DNA from: Escherichia coli
Lineage (GTDB): Bacteria > Pseudomonadota > Gammaproteobacteria > Enterobacterales > Enterobacteriaceae
Direction: 5' to 3' (one strand)
DNA length: 8,688 nucleotides
Assembly: GCF_003334335.1 (NCBI RefSeq)
Contig: NZ_QOWQ01000068.1
Part shown: positions 321 through 7,486 of the stretch, one piece after another
How the letters are laid out: each line of letters starts with the position of its first letter
Position numbering within the stretch: position 1 is the stretch's first letter
The notes under the pieces: generated by a model
What the model was told of the DNA's origin: nothing
The model's input: only the letters and a program-made list of their open reading frames with translations
The model's database searches: none
Position numbers and translations under genes: made by a program

Positions 321-512
321 CTAATTATTGGACGAAATTGGTTTTTGCTTTGGTTTAGTTAGCCTAGCAATCAAGCCAGAGGCAATAATGATGATCCAAG
401 CAATTTGATGCAATGCTACTCCAATATAAGAACCTTTATAGATAATAAAGGCATAGATCGCTAGAAACGAAATAAATATCCATAACGAAAGTTGATAAAT
501 TTTGGCGCGCAT
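321..512 (-). CDS. Small hydrophobic protein of ~63 aa with two predicted transmembrane helices and unknown function. The ORF track extends it to position 527 through a TTG; the internal ATG at 510-512 (reverse complement) is the more plausible start.
   Basis: It is the only long ORF in a strongly AT-rich region, where stop codons are frequent. The translation MRAKIYQLSLWIFISFLAIYAFIIYKGSYIGVALHQIAWIIIIASGLIARLTKPKQKPISSNN has two ~20-residue hydrophobic stretches and a basic C-terminus. I see only a weak GGA Shine-Dalgarno element. Confidence 0.45.
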   Translation of the reverse strand: MRAKIYQLSLWIFISFLAIYAFIIYKGSYIGVALHQIAWIIIIASGLIARLTKPKQKPISSNN

Positions 513-704
513 ATTTAATCCAATCAATCAGAAAGACGAGTAATCATAGAGGTACTATCACCCGGGTAACTATTGCTATTATGAACGGATAGGATAGAGG
601 CTTCAATAACATATGCATCAAGTATGATGGAATATGTAGGTGAAAATGACTTGTGTCAAATTTGTGGAAATGAGTACCATGTTTCTCTGAAATTGATGTC
701 GTTA

Positions 705-745
705 ATGGCTAGTGATAGTGAACTTTTTTACTTTATAATTCCTTT
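705..745 (+). promoter_or_regulatory. Candidate sigma70 promoter for the lipoprotein operon. It has a perfect TATAAT -10 hexamer at 734-739 and a poor -35 element.
   Basis: TATAAT lies ~30 nt upstream of the ATG at 769. It is preceded by a T-run and followed by an AAGG Shine-Dalgarno element at ~756-759. I cannot find a good -35 hexamer, so an activator or extended-element dependence is possible. Confidence 0.3.
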
Positions 746-768: not shown

Positions 769-1329
769 ATGAAGAAGATAATATTATTAGCCATGATTAT
801 TGGTTCTTTAACAGGTTGCGCTAGTGTGCCACCATTGAATTTTTCAACACCTAACGTGGGAGTTAGCCAGAAAAAAATAGATGCTGAAATTAAGTCATTA
901 ACGGTATCACTTGCTCGTCCAGATGAGCAGAAAGGGGATATCACTGCTGGTATGGAGGCTATAACTCCAATTTGGCGTGAATCTTTGCAGGAAGCACTCG
1001 ACCGAATGACTATTTTTCGTGATAGTTCACCAAATACGGTTAGCTTAAATGTTAAAGTGTTGGCTCTTGACGTTCCTGCTTTTGGTGTTTCAATGACAAC
1101 TAAAGCAATTGCAAGGTATGAAATAATCAACCGTGCGAATGGTGATATTATATATACGCAGGATATTGAGTCTACCGGTACTGTTCCAGCCAGTTACGCA
1201 TTCTACGGTATTGTTCGAGCACGCGAATCTGTTAATCGCGCGGTGCAAAACAACATAACGCAGTTCTTGCAAGCATTAGAAAGTGTTGATCTTTCTCGTC
1301 CAATGTTTCCTGTTAGGGTAGCTAAATGA
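769..1329 (+). CDS. Predicted lipoprotein (186 aa) of unknown function. It is the first gene of a two-gene lipoprotein operon.
   Basis: The N-terminus MKKIILLAMIIGSLTGCAS is a type II signal peptide with an LTGC lipobox. An AAGG Shine-Dalgarno element sits 8 nt upstream. The stop codon overlaps the downstream start as ATGA at 1326-1329. I do not recognise the family. Confidence 0.8.
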   Translation: MKKIILLAMIIGSLTGCASVPPLNFSTPNVGVSQKKIDAEIKSLTVSLARPDEQKGDITAGMEAITPIWRESLQEALDRMTIFRDSSPNTVSLNVKVLALDVPAFGVSMTTKAIARYEIINRANGDIIYTQDIESTGTVPASYAFYGIVRARESVNRAVQNNITQFLQALESVDLSRPMFPVRVAK

Positions 1330-1778
1330 AGCGATTATTCGTAATTGCTCCACTCTTAGTGTTGGTTGGATGCGCACAAAATATATCGCCAAATAGTTAT
1401 TCTGTTGGCTCTGTGGGCATGGTTAATCGAACTATCGCTGGTACAGTTATTAGTGCTAGGGGGGTTGATATCAGTGGGACTTCCGCGTTAGGCGGGACTG
1501 CTGGGGCTGCCGTGGGGGCAACCGCTGGTTCTGCGCTTGGTGGGGGAGTTCGTTCTAATATCGTTGGTGCCGTTGGTGGTGCAGTCATTGGTGGTATTGC
1601 CGGGGCAGCAATCGAATCTTCAGCAACAAAACAAACAGGCATGGAATATGTTGTCGAAACTGAGAATGGGAATTTAATGACCATTGTTCAAGGCAAAGAT
1701 CCGTTATTTACTCAAGGAAGTAAGGTCCTTGTTTTATACGGAAACCCTTCTCGCATAATAACAGACCCGCGTCACTAA
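1326..1778 (+). CDS. Outer-membrane lipoprotein of the SlyB/Pcp family (glycine-zipper 2TM / 17 kDa surface antigen-like), 150 aa.
   Basis: The signal peptide carries an LVGC lipobox (MKRLFVIAPLLVLVGCAQN). The central region is Gly/Ala-rich with a glycine-zipper pattern (NIVGAVGGAVIGGIAGAAI). The C-terminal part, QTGMEYVVETENGNLMTIVQGKDPLFTQGSKVLVLYGNPSRI, aligns by eye with the E. coli SlyB C-terminus QGVELEIRKDDGNTIMVVQKQGNTRFSPGQRVVLASNGSQV. Confidence 0.85.
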   Translation: MKRLFVIAPLLVLVGCAQNISPNSYSVGSVGMVNRTIAGTVISARGVDISGTSALGGTAGAAVGATAGSALGGGVRSNIVGAVGGAVIGGIAGAAIESSATKQTGMEYVVETENGNLMTIVQGKDPLFTQGSKVLVLYGNPSRIITDPRH

Positions 1779-1818
1779 CATACCTTTTGATTTTGTAAAA
1801 TCAATTCGTAATAATAAA

Positions 1819-1853
1819 GTCATCGGAGCTTGAACAACTCCGGTGACTTCTGC
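1819..1853 (+). terminator. Possible weak terminator hairpin after the lipoprotein operon.
   Basis: GTCATCGGAG-(9 nt loop)-CTCCGGTGAC forms a ~10 bp stem with one G-U wobble. It is followed by TTCTGCG, a poor U-tract. It lies at the right edge of the AT-rich island. Confidence 0.3.
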
Positions 1854-1968
1854 GCTAAACGGGGACGTTTATGCGCACATACAATCCAAACTCTCTTCTC
1901 CCTTCACAGATGCAGAAATGCACCTGCGATTTTTTGCATCCAGCGTCTGACCTCTGCGGAGGTGAAGC

Positions 1969-3982: not shown

Positions 3983-4022
3983 TATGTTGGGGAGGCAAAG
4001 CCTCCCGCAACATATCTTTTAG
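3983..4022 (+). terminator. Long hairpin followed by CTTTT on the plus strand. It is a candidate tR'-like terminator for the short transcript from the Q-dependent late promoter. It also lies immediately 3' of the nmpC stop on the other strand.
   Basis: ATATGTTGGGGAGGC-AAA-GCCTCCCGCAACATAT forms a ~15 bp stem with one bulged C and a 3 nt loop, then CTTTTAG. A second 8-9 bp hairpin lies at 3960-3981 (AGTGGCT-TGAGGG-AGCCACT). Confidence 0.4.
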
Positions 4023-4030
4023 TAATCAAA

Positions 4031-5113
4031 TTAGAACTGGTAAACCATACCTACAGCAACGATATCATCGGTAGCAACGCCAGATGCTTTCGTGAAATCG
4101 CTCTTATCAATCAGGTTGATTTTGTAATCAACAAAAGTGGACATATTTTTGTTGAAGTAATAGGTTGCACCTACATCAATATATTCAACCAGGTCCTGAT
4201 CACCCCACGCACCCAAGTCTTTTCCTTTAGATTGCAGGTAAGCAACGGACGGACGCAGACCGAAGTCGAACTGATATTGTGCAACTACTTCGAAGTTTTG
4301 TGCTTTGTTGGCAATATGGTTATTACCAAAAACAGTCATGTTCTGGGTTTCAGAATAGGTGGTAGCCAGATAGATGTTGTTCGCATCATATTTCAGACCA
4401 GCTGCCCATACTTCAGCATTTTGACCAGATGCATTCAGGCTGTTGTTACCGTAGATAACCTGATTATTAGTGCGGTCAGATTTAGCATAGGTTGCACCTA
4501 CACCGAATCCTTCATACTCATAAGTAGTGGAGAAACCGAAACCATCACCATTAGCTTCAGTTACGTCAGTGCGGTCATTTTTACCCTGATACTGAGCAGC
4601 AAAGTTCAGACCATCAACCAGACCAAAGAAGTCATTGTTACGATAAGTTGCAACACCTGTGGTGCGACCAGTCATGAATACATCTGTTTGGGTCCAGGTA
4701 TCGCCACCGAATTCTGGCAGAACGTCGGTCCATGCACCAATATCGTATGCTACACCGTAGTTACGGCCATAATCGATGGAGCCGTAGTCACCGAATTTCA
4801 GGCCAGCGAAGGCAAGACGGGTTTTATCTTTGGAGGAACCTTGAGATTCAGCGCGGTTGCCTTTGAATTCATATTCCCACTGACCGAAACCAGTCAGTTG
4901 ATCGTTGATTTGGGTTTCACCTTTGAAGCCAAGACGGGCATAAGTAGTATCACCATCATCTGCATCATTAGAGGAGAAGTAGTGCTTAGCATTAACTTTC
5001 CCGTACAGATCCAGCTTGTTACTGTCTTTATTATAAATTTCAGCTGCCTGAGCAGACATCGCCATCAGTACTGATGCAGCTACAGCAGAAATTGCCACTG
5101 TTAATTTTTTCAT
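4031..5113 (-). CDS. nmpC: Outer membrane porin of the NmpC / Lc / OmpD type, from the OmpC family (361 aa precursor). It is intact here.
   Basis: The signal peptide is [23 protein letters not shown] followed by [16 protein letters not shown].... The protein ends in the aromatic C-terminal residue of a beta-barrel (...VGMVYQF). It aligns with my memory of DLP12 NmpC. The ORF-track start at 5173 adds 20 non-signal residues and is rejected; the ATG at 5111-5113 (reverse complement) follows an AAAGGG Shine-Dalgarno element. Confidence 0.95.
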
Positions 5114-5539
5114 CGTGAGCCCTTTTTTTGAACTATTATTAAAAAATGATGTCACTGCGCGATAAATATTCATCTAATCAATGTGATTATTTCAAGATGT
5201 AAGTTTTGGTTTCTCATTTGATTTGTGAAGTAGATCTCTATTTTTATCTGAACTTTTTCTATCGAATCCTATTCATGGCTCTTGGCTGAATAAAAATAAA
5301 TCTATTAGCCAATTTATATTAATGGCTGTTATTTATAAGTGCTCTATAATTTGAAGATTCAATTTAAACCAGCTAAAAATAACGCTGGAAATTATTTGTT
5401 GGTTATTTGTTGAGATTTGCTTATGTATTTGTAGTGGTGTTTTCAATACTCGGTAGCATTCTCGCAAATATCATTTAGTGGTTTACGTACGTAAAAAATT
5501 GGTTATGCTGTTAAGAGTGGTTACTTCGTCACACAGCTT

Positions 5540-6902: not shown

Positions 6903-7196
6903 TTATTGTGAGCAATACACACGCGCTTCCAGCGGAGTATAAATGCCTAAAGTAATAAAACCGAGCAATCCATTTACGAATGTTTGCTGGGTTTCTGTTT
7001 TAACAACATTTTCTGCGCCGCCACAAATTTTGGCTGCATCGACAGTTTTCTTCTGCCCAATTCCAGAAACGAAGAAATGATGGGTGATGGTTTCCTTTGG
7101 TGCTACTGCTGCCGGTTTGTTTTGAACAGTAAACGTCTGTTGAGCACATCCTGTAATAAGCAGGGCCAGCGCAGTAGCGAGTAGCATTTTTTTCAT
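6903..7196 (-). CDS. borD: Bor-family outer membrane lipoprotein (97 aa). It is homologous to lambda Bor and the Iss serum-resistance protein.
   Basis: The translation MKKMLLATALALLITGCAQQTF... has an ITGC lipobox. It is near-identical to my memory of lambda Bor/BorD. It sits in the canonical position downstream of the lysis genes, on the opposite strand. Confidence 0.95.
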   Translation of the reverse strand: MKKMLLATALALLITGCAQQTFTVQNKPAAVAPKETITHHFFVSGIGQKKTVDAAKICGGAENVVKTETQQTFVNGLLGFITLGIYTPLEARVYCSQ

Positions 7197-7486
7197 GGTG
7201 TTATTCCCGATGCTTTTTGAAGTTCGCAGAATCGTATGTGTAGAAAATTAAACAAACCCTAAACAATGAGTTGAAATTTCATATTGTTAATATTTATTAA
7301 TGTATGTCAGGTGCGATGAATCGTCATTGTATTCCCGGATTAACTATGTCCACAGCCCTGACGGGGAACTTCTCTGCGGGAGTGTCCGGGAATAATTAAA
7401 AACGATGCACACAGGGTTTAGCGCGTACACGTATTGCATTATGCCAACGCCCCGGTGCTGACACGGAAGAAACCGGACGTTATGAT

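Follow-up and report, generated by a model that had tools for sequence, protein, structure and literature searches.

A translationally coupled pair of predicted outer-membrane lipoprotein genes, one encoding a SlyB homologue, carried as prophage cargo in Escherichia coli and found in many proteobacteria

The window analyzed here, an 8,688-nucleotide stretch of Escherichia coli DNA (assembly GCF_003334335.1, contig NZ_QOWQ01000068.1), carries two adjacent genes, hereafter A and B, which on comparative grounds constitute a self-contained unit that is inherited as one and encodes two lipoproteins of the outer membrane. We propose that their products combine into a SlyB-type assembly in the outer membrane, by which the envelope is strengthened or shielded; we assign this reading a probability of roughly 45%, and in it we infer the complex, the rings and the phenotype alike.

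Gene A (769..1329, plus strand) encodes a 186-residue lipoprotein with the lipobox LTGC, and gene B (1326..1778, plus strand) a 150-residue lipoprotein with the lipobox LVGC. They overlap at 1326..1329 (plus strand; AAATGAAG) through an ATGA, in which the ATG of B begins at 1326 and the TGA stop of A occupies 1327-1329. Coordinates, overlap and both lipoboxes thus agree with the original prediction of two ATGA-overlapping lipoprotein genes, and we read the junction from its sequence as one of translational coupling. The N-terminus of A is MKKIILLAMIIGSLTG/C (the slash preceding the lipidated residue), with a predicted signal peptide spanning residues 1-16 and a predicted lipid-modified Cys17, and that of B is MKRLFVIAPLLVLVG/C (...LVLVG/CAQ), with Cys16 as the predicted lipidated residue. 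The residue at +2, which decides the outer-membrane sorting of lipoproteins under the E. coli Lol rule, is Ala in both proteins, and both should therefore reach the outer membrane. Relatives in a large protein database number 512 for A and 581 for B, and the pN values of 0.10-0.24 versus pS values of 0.72-0.86 obtained for A and B against enterobacterial orthologues point to purifying selection on A as well as B, which we take to be real genes rather than chance ORFs.

The linkage of the two genes recurs in gamma-, beta- and alpha-proteobacteria, where 85 of the 94 loci have B directly 3' of A (51/56 genome and reference loci and 34/38 viral loci); among the 67 unique pairs, the junction is a 4-nt overlap in 55, a 1-nt overlap in 6, and a gap of at most 3 nt in the others. 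Each protein is 60-70% identical across the three classes, and the A and B distance matrices are correlated (r=0.875), a correlation that co-inheritance alone would also yield. No third conserved gene was found around the pair across these loci, and no natural A-B fusions were seen among the longer family members. The neighbors of the copies outside E. coli comprise 113 Pfam families in 150 ORFs, with none present in more than two ORFs; these pairs mostly lie among unrelated, often housekeeping genes, and most have no adjoining phage genes. Both genes are under purifying selection. The GC content of the cassette follows that of each host genome, hence the cassette is old and functional in each of its hosts. 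No match was recovered in the PLSDB plasmid database, and no description of the A/B pair turned up in the searchable literature, in keeping with the prior statement that no system of this composition had been described.

B is, on sequence evidence, a full-length SlyB homologue of the SlyB/Pcp glycine-zipper type of outer-membrane lipoproteins. The paralogy to SlyB claimed at the outset was borne out by alignment, with significant similarity along the whole protein in a phmmer comparison with the SlyB sequence from the PDB (E 1.3e-14; B residues 2-149 aligned to SlyB 3-155), 33% identity to K-12 SlyB by BLASTP (E 7e-13), and a top Foldseek match to chain A of the SlyB13-BamA structure (7ojf_A; E 3.8e-8, probability 1.0, TM 0.56-0.59). 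Its score against the Pfam glycine zipper 2TM model PF05433 (21.1 bits, E 3e-4) falls below the gathering score of 24.2; against the same 43-residue model, K-12 SlyB reaches only 31.1 bits. The AF2 model of B, of moderate confidence (pLDDT 66), has a strand, two helices and four strands in order, and predicts an architecture of N- and C-terminal β-strands around a glycine-zipper helical hairpin (approximately residues 55-101). B belongs to a separate, tight subfamily within the SlyB type, its listed relatives being 62-100% identical to it as against 33% for SlyB. In the searchable studies, SlyB-type proteins are treated as acting alone.

A was left unrecognized in the original prediction, and with good reason: it has no sequence match in Pfam (E≤1), NCBIfam or the PDB, and its PHROG family is labeled 'unknown function'. 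Its AF2 model (pLDDT 80, pTM 0.75) displays the topology β-α-β-β-β-α, which places it, at the level of the predicted structure, among the α/β folds with an LptE/PqiC/PelC/TraT-like core; the model shows the DUF330/PqiC fold and is far nearer to it than to TraT. A search of viral folds in BFVD returned only low-TM matches (CsgG and ERF/Rad52). Three sets of conserved residues stand out in the family. First, a tether motif, C-x3-PPLNFSxPNVG, follows the lipid-modified Cys. Second, invariant Arg, Glu and Gln residues map to strand 3 and helix 2 (in the motifs ARYE, R(A)RES.NR and QNNI). Third, the C-terminal tail bears a [KR]PMFP motif, and a C-terminus of the form ...FLQALETVD..[KR]P[MLI]F[PS] occurs in every A with B downstream and is absent from all eight intact A genes that lack B (approximately five independent lineages). 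Synonymous variation is seen in the codons of this tail motif; therefore, the constraint acts at the level of the protein. The existence of A-only relatives indicates that A can function without B. With respect to named families, neither PF03886 (DUF330/PqiC) nor PF03923 (YajG family) matches A at E≤1, and PF03923 also fails to match ten distant A relatives, under a control in which K-12 YajG scores 177 bits; a profile comparison by hhalign gives a weak match between A and YajG (probability 77%, pairwise E 2e-5, 120 columns including the signal peptide). PqiC was rejected as a sequence homologue of A since hhalign aligns the signal peptide only.

The prophage that houses the pair in the window has a DLP12-like backbone (ybcN-ninE-ybcO-rusA-quuD-porin-lysis-bor) and is a defective lambda-like element whose immunity and replication region is gone. 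As had been noted, it also encodes a porin (nmpC; 4031-5113, minus strand), approximately 2.3 kb from the pair, and the outer-membrane lipoprotein Bor (6903-7196, minus strand). The pair is flanked by ren and ybcN, and among 5426 complete E. coli genomes it is found in 280 (~5%) at ≥99% identity, always in the ren/ninB cargo slot of DLP12-like prophages. The same slot in the DLP12 prophage of K-12 is filled by emrE-ylcJ-ybcK-ybcL-ybcM, with the nmpC/bor backbone present and the pair absent. The pair also occurs, at 100% identity, in the intact phage PhiR30_1, and in other phages it is found between the tape-measure gene and that of a minor tail protein, or next to a CI-like repressor; temperate phages, among which it fills at least three different slots, have captured the cassette several times. 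The description of the pair as prophage-borne therefore holds for E. coli, where it is prophage cargo, and does not extend to the majority of the other copies, with their unrelated neighbors: the pair is an older stand-alone cassette of many proteobacteria, for which that label is too narrow.

Within the E. coli backbone, the pair looks like a phage moron, being an insertion into the backbone and an alternative cargo of its slot, with deviant GC (32-45% in the insert versus ~51% in the flanks), a predicted promoter-like site and a predicted hairpin. Given that the prophage in the window lacks a pR region, the pair would need a local promoter if it is expressed, and a sigma-70-like candidate lies at 712..739 (plus strand; GTGATA-16 nt-TATAAT, a consensus match only, at 10/12 positions), approximately 30 nt 5' of the A start codon within an AT-rich stretch (32-34% GC). 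Approximately 40 nt past the B stop codon, an 11-bp stem-loop with a weak U tract (1818..1848, plus strand) may terminate transcription or mark where the cassette mRNA ends: the RNA fold of 1779-1870 reaches -25.3 kcal/mol (z -3.3) and none of 200 shuffles was as stable, although a terminator scan did not call this stem-loop. The slyB gene of E. coli and Salmonella is PhoP-regulated; a search for a PhoP box 5' of A (528-768, ≤3 mismatches) found none, in the same window where a perfect box precedes bor (7249-7265). PhoP-box control of the pair was accordingly rejected, and a SlyB-style stress regulation is not evident for it. The AT-rich insert further contains a small ORF of 68 residues (321..527, minus strand), which resembles a small membrane protein, as judged from two hydrophobic stretches visible on inspection, carries a hypothetical-protein annotation in PhiR30_1 and has no PHROG match; since other genera lack it beside the pair, it is only doubtfully part of the cassette. 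Neither Rfam families nor repeats were detected in the surroundings of the cassette.

In the mechanism that we propose, A and B would be made in roughly equal amounts by virtue of their translational coupling, B would oligomerize in the manner of SlyB, and A would bind B via the conserved tether close to its lipid anchor and via its [KR]PMFP tail. Known members of the LptE/PqiC/PelC/TraT-core fold either attach to a barrel or assemble into rings beneath the outer membrane, with anionic glycolipids as ligands of several. The outcome would be a hetero-oligomer in the outer membrane that stabilizes or shields the envelope of the carrier cell. As for the precedent, the rings of E. coli SlyB in the outer membrane enclose β-barrel proteins and lipid under envelope stress (Janssens 2024, as cited in PMC13082787 and bioRxiv 10.64898/2025.12.22.696046), and highly expressed SlyB copies are carried by other mobile elements, namely megaplasmids (bioRxiv 10.1101/2025.09.30.679422). 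In E. coli, the cassette would behave as a moron with its own promoter-like site and trailing hairpin in the ren/ninB slot, and would act as a lysogenic-conversion trait of the same broad category as Bor. Its repeated capture by phages and its retention in ~5% of the genomes, even in decayed prophages, suggest a selectable envelope phenotype, for which stress, serum or phage resistance are the candidates. A more elaborate possibility, which we consider speculative and unlikely, is a hetero-oligomeric TraT-like ring, with the B hairpins as the ring in the membrane and the LptE-like domains of A as a periplasmic tier docked via the tether and the KPMFP tail, that would serve as a portable shield conferring either serum resistance or a broad exclusion of bacteriocins, phages or conjugation.

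The alternative that survives best, though we hold it to be somewhat improbable, is surface or superinfection exclusion, wherein the A-B complex would act at the outer membrane against bacteriocins, conjugation, or the adsorption or DNA entry of incoming phages, in the manner of TraT, Cor and Llp, to the direct benefit of the mobile element. The repeated capture of the pair by different temperate phage lineages is consistent with this, and in one lineage the pair adjoins the CI-like repressor, as sie-type genes often do; likewise, the B relative YfgH of K-12 matches the Pfam TraT family near the threshold, and the pair is oriented as part of the early-right operon, such that intact phages would express it early in lytic growth too. 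Set against these are the 60-70% identity across three classes, which speaks more for a conserved envelope target than for the masking of lineage-specific receptors, the mostly ordinary chromosomal surroundings of the copies outside E. coli, and the greater closeness of the A fold to DUF330/PqiC than to TraT. Moreover, similarity to the Cor PHROG is limited to residues 1-22, i.e., the signal peptide (E 0.11-0.25), and PADLOC assigns no family to either protein. Few defense genes occur among the neighbors, with no enrichment, and a defense-island context for the pair is not supported.

Less probable again is a role in lipid or LPS handling, in which A would bind LPS or phospholipid like the LptE/PqiC-type lipoproteins and act with B in outer-membrane lipid homeostasis or transport rather than as a passive shield. 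The invariant Arg, Glu and Gln residues of A noted above would suit such a role, as would the co-purification of SlyB and of YajG with LptDE (PMC12065857). Yet MCE, Pqi and Lpt genes are not conserved beside the pair, the sequence similarity of A to PqiC is confined to the signal peptide, and A, being without any Pfam match at E≤1, matches neither PF03886 nor PF03923; further, even TraT, with its identical core fold, does not retain the residues by which LptE binds LPS (PMC12658005).

We consider it very improbable that A and B are merely independent neighbors, i.e., unrelated lipoprotein genes that share an operon without their products interacting: the A-only members of the family agree with this view, and against it stand the near-universal adjacency and 4-nt overlap across classes, the strict tracking of B by the C-terminal tail of A, and the likeness of the A and B subfamilies in size and degree of conservation. 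Finally, the notion from the original prediction that the pair encapsulates or assists the phage-encoded porin NmpC, which draws on their proximity in one prophage and the enclosure of β-barrels by SlyB, is largely refuted by distribution, for the pair has a porin homologue in its vicinity on the E. coli DLP12-like (lambdoid) backbone alone (0/54 other genome loci and 0/17 divergent viral loci), the DLP12 of K-12 keeps nmpC without the pair, strain JNQH498 has an intact pair despite a porin gene annotated as a pseudogene, and a search for a conserved outer-membrane-protein or porin neighbor across the loci found none.

Returning to the proposed SlyB-type assembly of A and B, its interest lies in that the recognition of SlyB-type glycine-zipper lipoproteins as organizers of protective outer-membrane nanodomains is itself recent, and here a widespread SlyB subfamily is nearly always co-encoded and coupled with a partner lipoprotein. 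If the A-B complex exists, it would offer a compact two-gene model for the building, targeting and specialization of such assemblies, and the candidate resistance phenotypes would bear on lysogenic conversion. Should the ring version hold, it would be a previously unrecognized class of two-protein α-helical outer-membrane assembly and the first instance in which a SlyB-type protein has a partner protein of its own, and a portable shield would explain why several lineages of temperate phages keep acquiring it. The A family itself is unnamed, with at least 915 clusters (50% identity, E≤1e-3) and no Pfam model. At the level of annotation, the finding exposes the propagated mis-annotation 'UDP-N-acetylglucosamine acyltransferase' and the doubtful PGAP name 'YajG family'.

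Among known systems, SlyB (PDB 7OJF/7OJG) is closest to B, sharing its length, lipobox, N-terminal strands, glycine-zipper hairpin and C-terminal strands; however, slyB stands alone next to slyA, whereas B is nearly always coupled to an upstream A, is part of mobile cargo, and has no PhoP box 5' of its cassette. YfgH, a SlyB-like envelope-stabilizing lipoprotein (bioRxiv 10.64898/2025.12.22.696046), is matched by the B profile with a probability of 96%, and the YfgH-YfgI locus is reminiscent of the pair in that a glycine-zipper lipoprotein gene adjoins a second small envelope gene; the order is nevertheless reversed, with the zipper gene first, and YfgI (DUF5384) is unrelated to A, for which reason it was rejected as an A analogue. 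TraT, the IncF surface-exclusion and serum-resistance lipoprotein (PDB 9E2V, 9FS5), comprises in a single polypeptide the parts that the cassette distributes over two; the likeness is one of architecture only, as Pfam TraT (PF05818) matches neither A nor B. The DUF330/PqiC and LptE lipoproteins have no detectable sequence similarity to A, and neither MCE/Pqi nor LptD genes accompany the cassette. YajG (PF03923) is a lipoprotein of similar size whose name PGAP gives to A in some records, but yajG has no SlyB-like partner and PF03923 recognizes YajG and not A. Bor, Cor and Llp are, like the pair, outer-membrane lipoproteins encoded by prophages as cargo; they are non-homologous to it and are single, small, phage-restricted proteins, in contrast to a two-gene unit that is widespread beyond phages.

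The pair is a conserved, translationally coupled two-lipoprotein cassette, in which a SlyB-subfamily protein (B) is accompanied by a partner (A) that has an LptE/PqiC-like fold but falls in no Pfam family. The two same-strand ORFs lie exactly where the original prediction placed them, with A (769..1329, +) encoding 186 aa and B (1326..1778, +) 150 aa, and with the TGA of A overlapped by the ATG of B within AAATGAAG. Both proteins begin with a lipoprotein signal peptide and lipobox (A, ...SLTG/C; B, ...VLVG/C) and have Ala at residue +2; since the Lol sorting rule of E. coli sends lipoproteins with Ala at +2 to the outer membrane, delivery there is predicted for both. They are real genes, with 512 (A) and 581 (B) relatives in a large protein database and a pN of 0.10-0.24 against a pS of 0.72-0.86 for both when compared with three enterobacterial orthologues.

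The proposed SlyB-like nature of the second protein is borne out by a phmmer search of all PDB sequences, which aligns B end to end with SlyB (7OJF/7OJG; E 1.3e-14), by BLASTP against K-12 SlyB (33% identity, E 7e-13), and by its AlphaFold model (pLDDT 66; in order, a single strand, two helices forming a hairpin, and four further strands), whose sole significant PDB match is SlyB13-BamA (E 3.8e-8, TM 0.56-0.59). In the suggested alignment to the glycine-zipper family, B scores 21.1 bits on the Pfam glycine-zipper-2TM model, slightly short of the cut-off of 24.2; on this 43-residue model SlyB itself reaches only 31.1 bits. By these sequence and model matches B is a SlyB-family lipoprotein of a distinct and tightly conserved subfamily, the relatives listed being 62-100% identical to B versus 33% for SlyB.

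The upstream lipoprotein, unrecognized from the start, has no match past its signal peptide in Pfam, NCBIfam, or PDB sequences, and the PHROG families of both proteins (A, phrog_12521; B, phrog_13877) are labelled 'unknown function'. A carries conflicting database names, viz., 'UDP-N-acetylglucosamine acyltransferase', 'YajG family lipoprotein' (PGAP, some records), and 'hypothetical'. The first, found on many A-family protein records (e.g., P0001, P0003, P0021, and XSB42265.1 of phage PhiR30_1), is unsupported by any profile or structure search and thus looks like a propagated mis-annotation. Pfam does not support the second, as PF03923 gives YajG 177 bits and nothing for A and ten distant A relatives; hhalign yields a weak match between A and YajG (probability 77%, signal peptide included). 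The structural search advocated for A recovers an LptE/PqiC-like fold, with XCC0632 (DUF330) as the top match (fold-comparison score 13.6), followed by PelC (10.4), HpaA (10.3), a flagellar LPHT-ring protein (10.0), LptE (10.0), PqiC (9.5), CsgG (9.3), and TraT (7.2). Searched by profile, 1.84 billion cluster representatives yielded 915 clusters at E<=1e-3 and 96 at E<=1e-30, so A represents a large family outside Pfam coverage.

We compared 54 genome loci from gamma-, beta-, and alpha-proteobacteria, two reference loci, and 38 IMG/VR viral contigs. A B homologue lies directly downstream of A in 51 of the 56 genome and reference loci and in 34 of the 38 viral ones; the genes overlap by 4 nt in 55 of 67 non-identical pairs and by 1 nt in six, the remainder being at most 3 nt apart. 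Across these loci no third conserved gene was found beside the pair. The 150 nearest neighbor ORFs, drawn from 45 of 60 distinct non-E. coli loci, match 113 Pfam families, each seen in two ORFs at most, and include housekeeping genes (SecA, Hsp70, LytB). Few neighbors match defense models. In examples with called genes the settings differ: the pair lies in a variable part of the Klebsiella oxytoca chromosome, at the margin of an island of phage, toxin-antitoxin, and IS genes in Bordetella, next to an integrase-bearing element in Edaphovirga, and next to pgaABCD in Xanthomonas. As its GC content tracks that of each host (0.44 to 0.63), the cassette is old in each lineage and not recently moved between classes.

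All versions of A with B downstream end in ...FLQALETVD-x2-3-[KR]P[MLI]F[PS]. This tail is missing from 8/8 intact A genes without B (loci L046, L051, L055, L056, and L102-L105; ~5 independent lineages), including the A-only variants at 8001-8543 of L102 and 7971-8552 of L103-L105, which have no downstream SlyB-like gene; in a further locus without B (L050) A is disrupted, and many distant A relatives among the profile-search matches listed end their alignment before the tail. On the lambdoid contig L102, where a Q-like gene is also present, the product encoded after A is a 95-aa protein with a signal-peptide-like N-terminus. Directly after the lipidated Cys of A, a tether motif, PPxNFSxP, is invariant. 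Synonymous sites vary freely in both tail and tether codons, so the constraint acts on the protein rather than on the ribosome-binding site of B. The A monomer model has low confidence in both segments, as expected of peptides that would fold on a partner. Taken together, these observations give indirect evidence of a physical A-B complex.

In E. coli DLP12-like prophages carry the pair as cargo, and independent captures have brought it into other phages; the prophage-borne framing stands for this species and is too narrow for the non-E. coli copies, most of which lie among varied chromosomal genes. It occurs in 280 of 5426 complete E. coli genomes, always chromosomal, with none found on plasmids, and always >=99% identical. 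All 23 E. coli-type loci examined show the order ren, pair, ybcN(ninB)-ninE-ybcO-rusA, whereas K-12 DLP12, with the same backbone (nmpC, lysis genes, and bor included), holds emrE-ylcJ-ybcK-ybcL-ybcM at that position. The AT-richness of the insert (32-45% GC vs ~51% in the flanks), a predicted promoter-like site upstream of A (712-739), and a predicted stable hairpin after the pair (1818-1848) are features of a moron. The insert also holds a 68-aa ORF (321-527, -) with two hydrophobic stretches, 'hypothetical' in PhiR30_1, for which neither a PHROG match nor a copy beside the pair in other genera was found. In the intact phage PhiR30_1 (L002), a pair 100% identical to this one lies between ren and ninB. 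In the window, a bet/recT fragment (1 to ~160; PhiR30_1 4009-4169) is joined to the ren 3' end (PhiR30_1 10532), the two parts lying at 1-~167 and from 150 onwards; cI-cro-cII-O-P are therefore lost, and this prophage is defective and cannot be induced. In other temperate phages the pair lies between the tape-measure gene and one for a gpM-like minor tail protein (L089-L091) or beside a CI-like repressor (L092, L098, L100), so there have been at least three captures. In an E. coli-type viral contig (L085, ~8903-10709), ~1.8 kb is inserted directly after the pair, with sequence of window 1811-1939 on both sides. A Serratia marcescens locus (L052, 7992-9314) has an N-terminally truncated A (142 aa) and an intact B, followed by a fragment resembling the tape-measure protein flanking the pair in L089-L091; apparently this was once a tail-module cassette and has since decayed.

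The suggested link to the prophage porin is not supported: the E. coli DLP12-like backbone is the only setting in which a porin homologue accompanies the pair, that backbone exists with nmpC and without the pair in K-12, and the pair is retained even where the porin gene carries a pseudogene annotation. The nmpC-type ORF in the window (4031-5173, -) is open, giving 361 aa when read from the ATG at 5113; its counterpart at a 99.94%-identical locus in strain JNQH498 has an internal stop and is listed as a pseudogene, and IS5 interrupts the K-12 copy. The direct repeat TGTTTAGGGTTTGTTTA (7249-7265, -), a perfect PhoP-box-like sequence and the sole zero-mismatch PhoP-box match in the window, lies ~55-70 nt upstream of the start codon of bor (6903-7196, -), which fits the PhoP activation of borD in K-12; none was found upstream of the pair.

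We propose, at somewhat less than even odds (roughly 0.45), that A and B assemble as a hetero-oligomer in the outer membrane that would stabilize or shield the envelope. Envelope-stress modulation is the most economical reading in view of the known roles of SlyB and YfgH (PMC13082787; bioRxiv 10.64898/2025.12.22.696046); it is, however, tempered by the PhoP box standing before bor and not before the pair. Repeated capture by phages and an architectural likeness to TraT would suit receptor masking or superinfection exclusion; against it, PADLOC matches neither protein, similarity to Cor is confined to the signal peptide, the neighbor ORFs lack a defense-island context, and 60-70% identity across classes suits a conserved target more than receptors that differ between lineages. 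An exclusion function is one of two main rivals, less probable than the proposed assembly; the other, a lipid-handling function, is less probable again. So far there is no sign of an unexpected mechanism. The searchable literature contains no description of a SlyB-type protein that has a dedicated partner, and the pair offers a compact, widespread, and easily tested system.

The near-threshold match of YfgH (K-12 yfgH; L107, 4793-5311) to Pfam TraT (28.1 bits vs cut-off 31, residues 62-158) hints that the two membrane helices of TraT and the SlyB/YfgH glycine-zipper hairpin might be homologous. TraT, which forms a decameric ring, is built from a core resembling LptE, a pair of transmembrane helices, and a beta hairpin (PMC12658005); between them, A and B provide a core and a hairpin of similar kind. 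Among the fold matches of A, the PelC dodecamer, the TraT decamer, and the LPHT ring are ring assemblies by their PDB titles, whereas LptE docks in a barrel.
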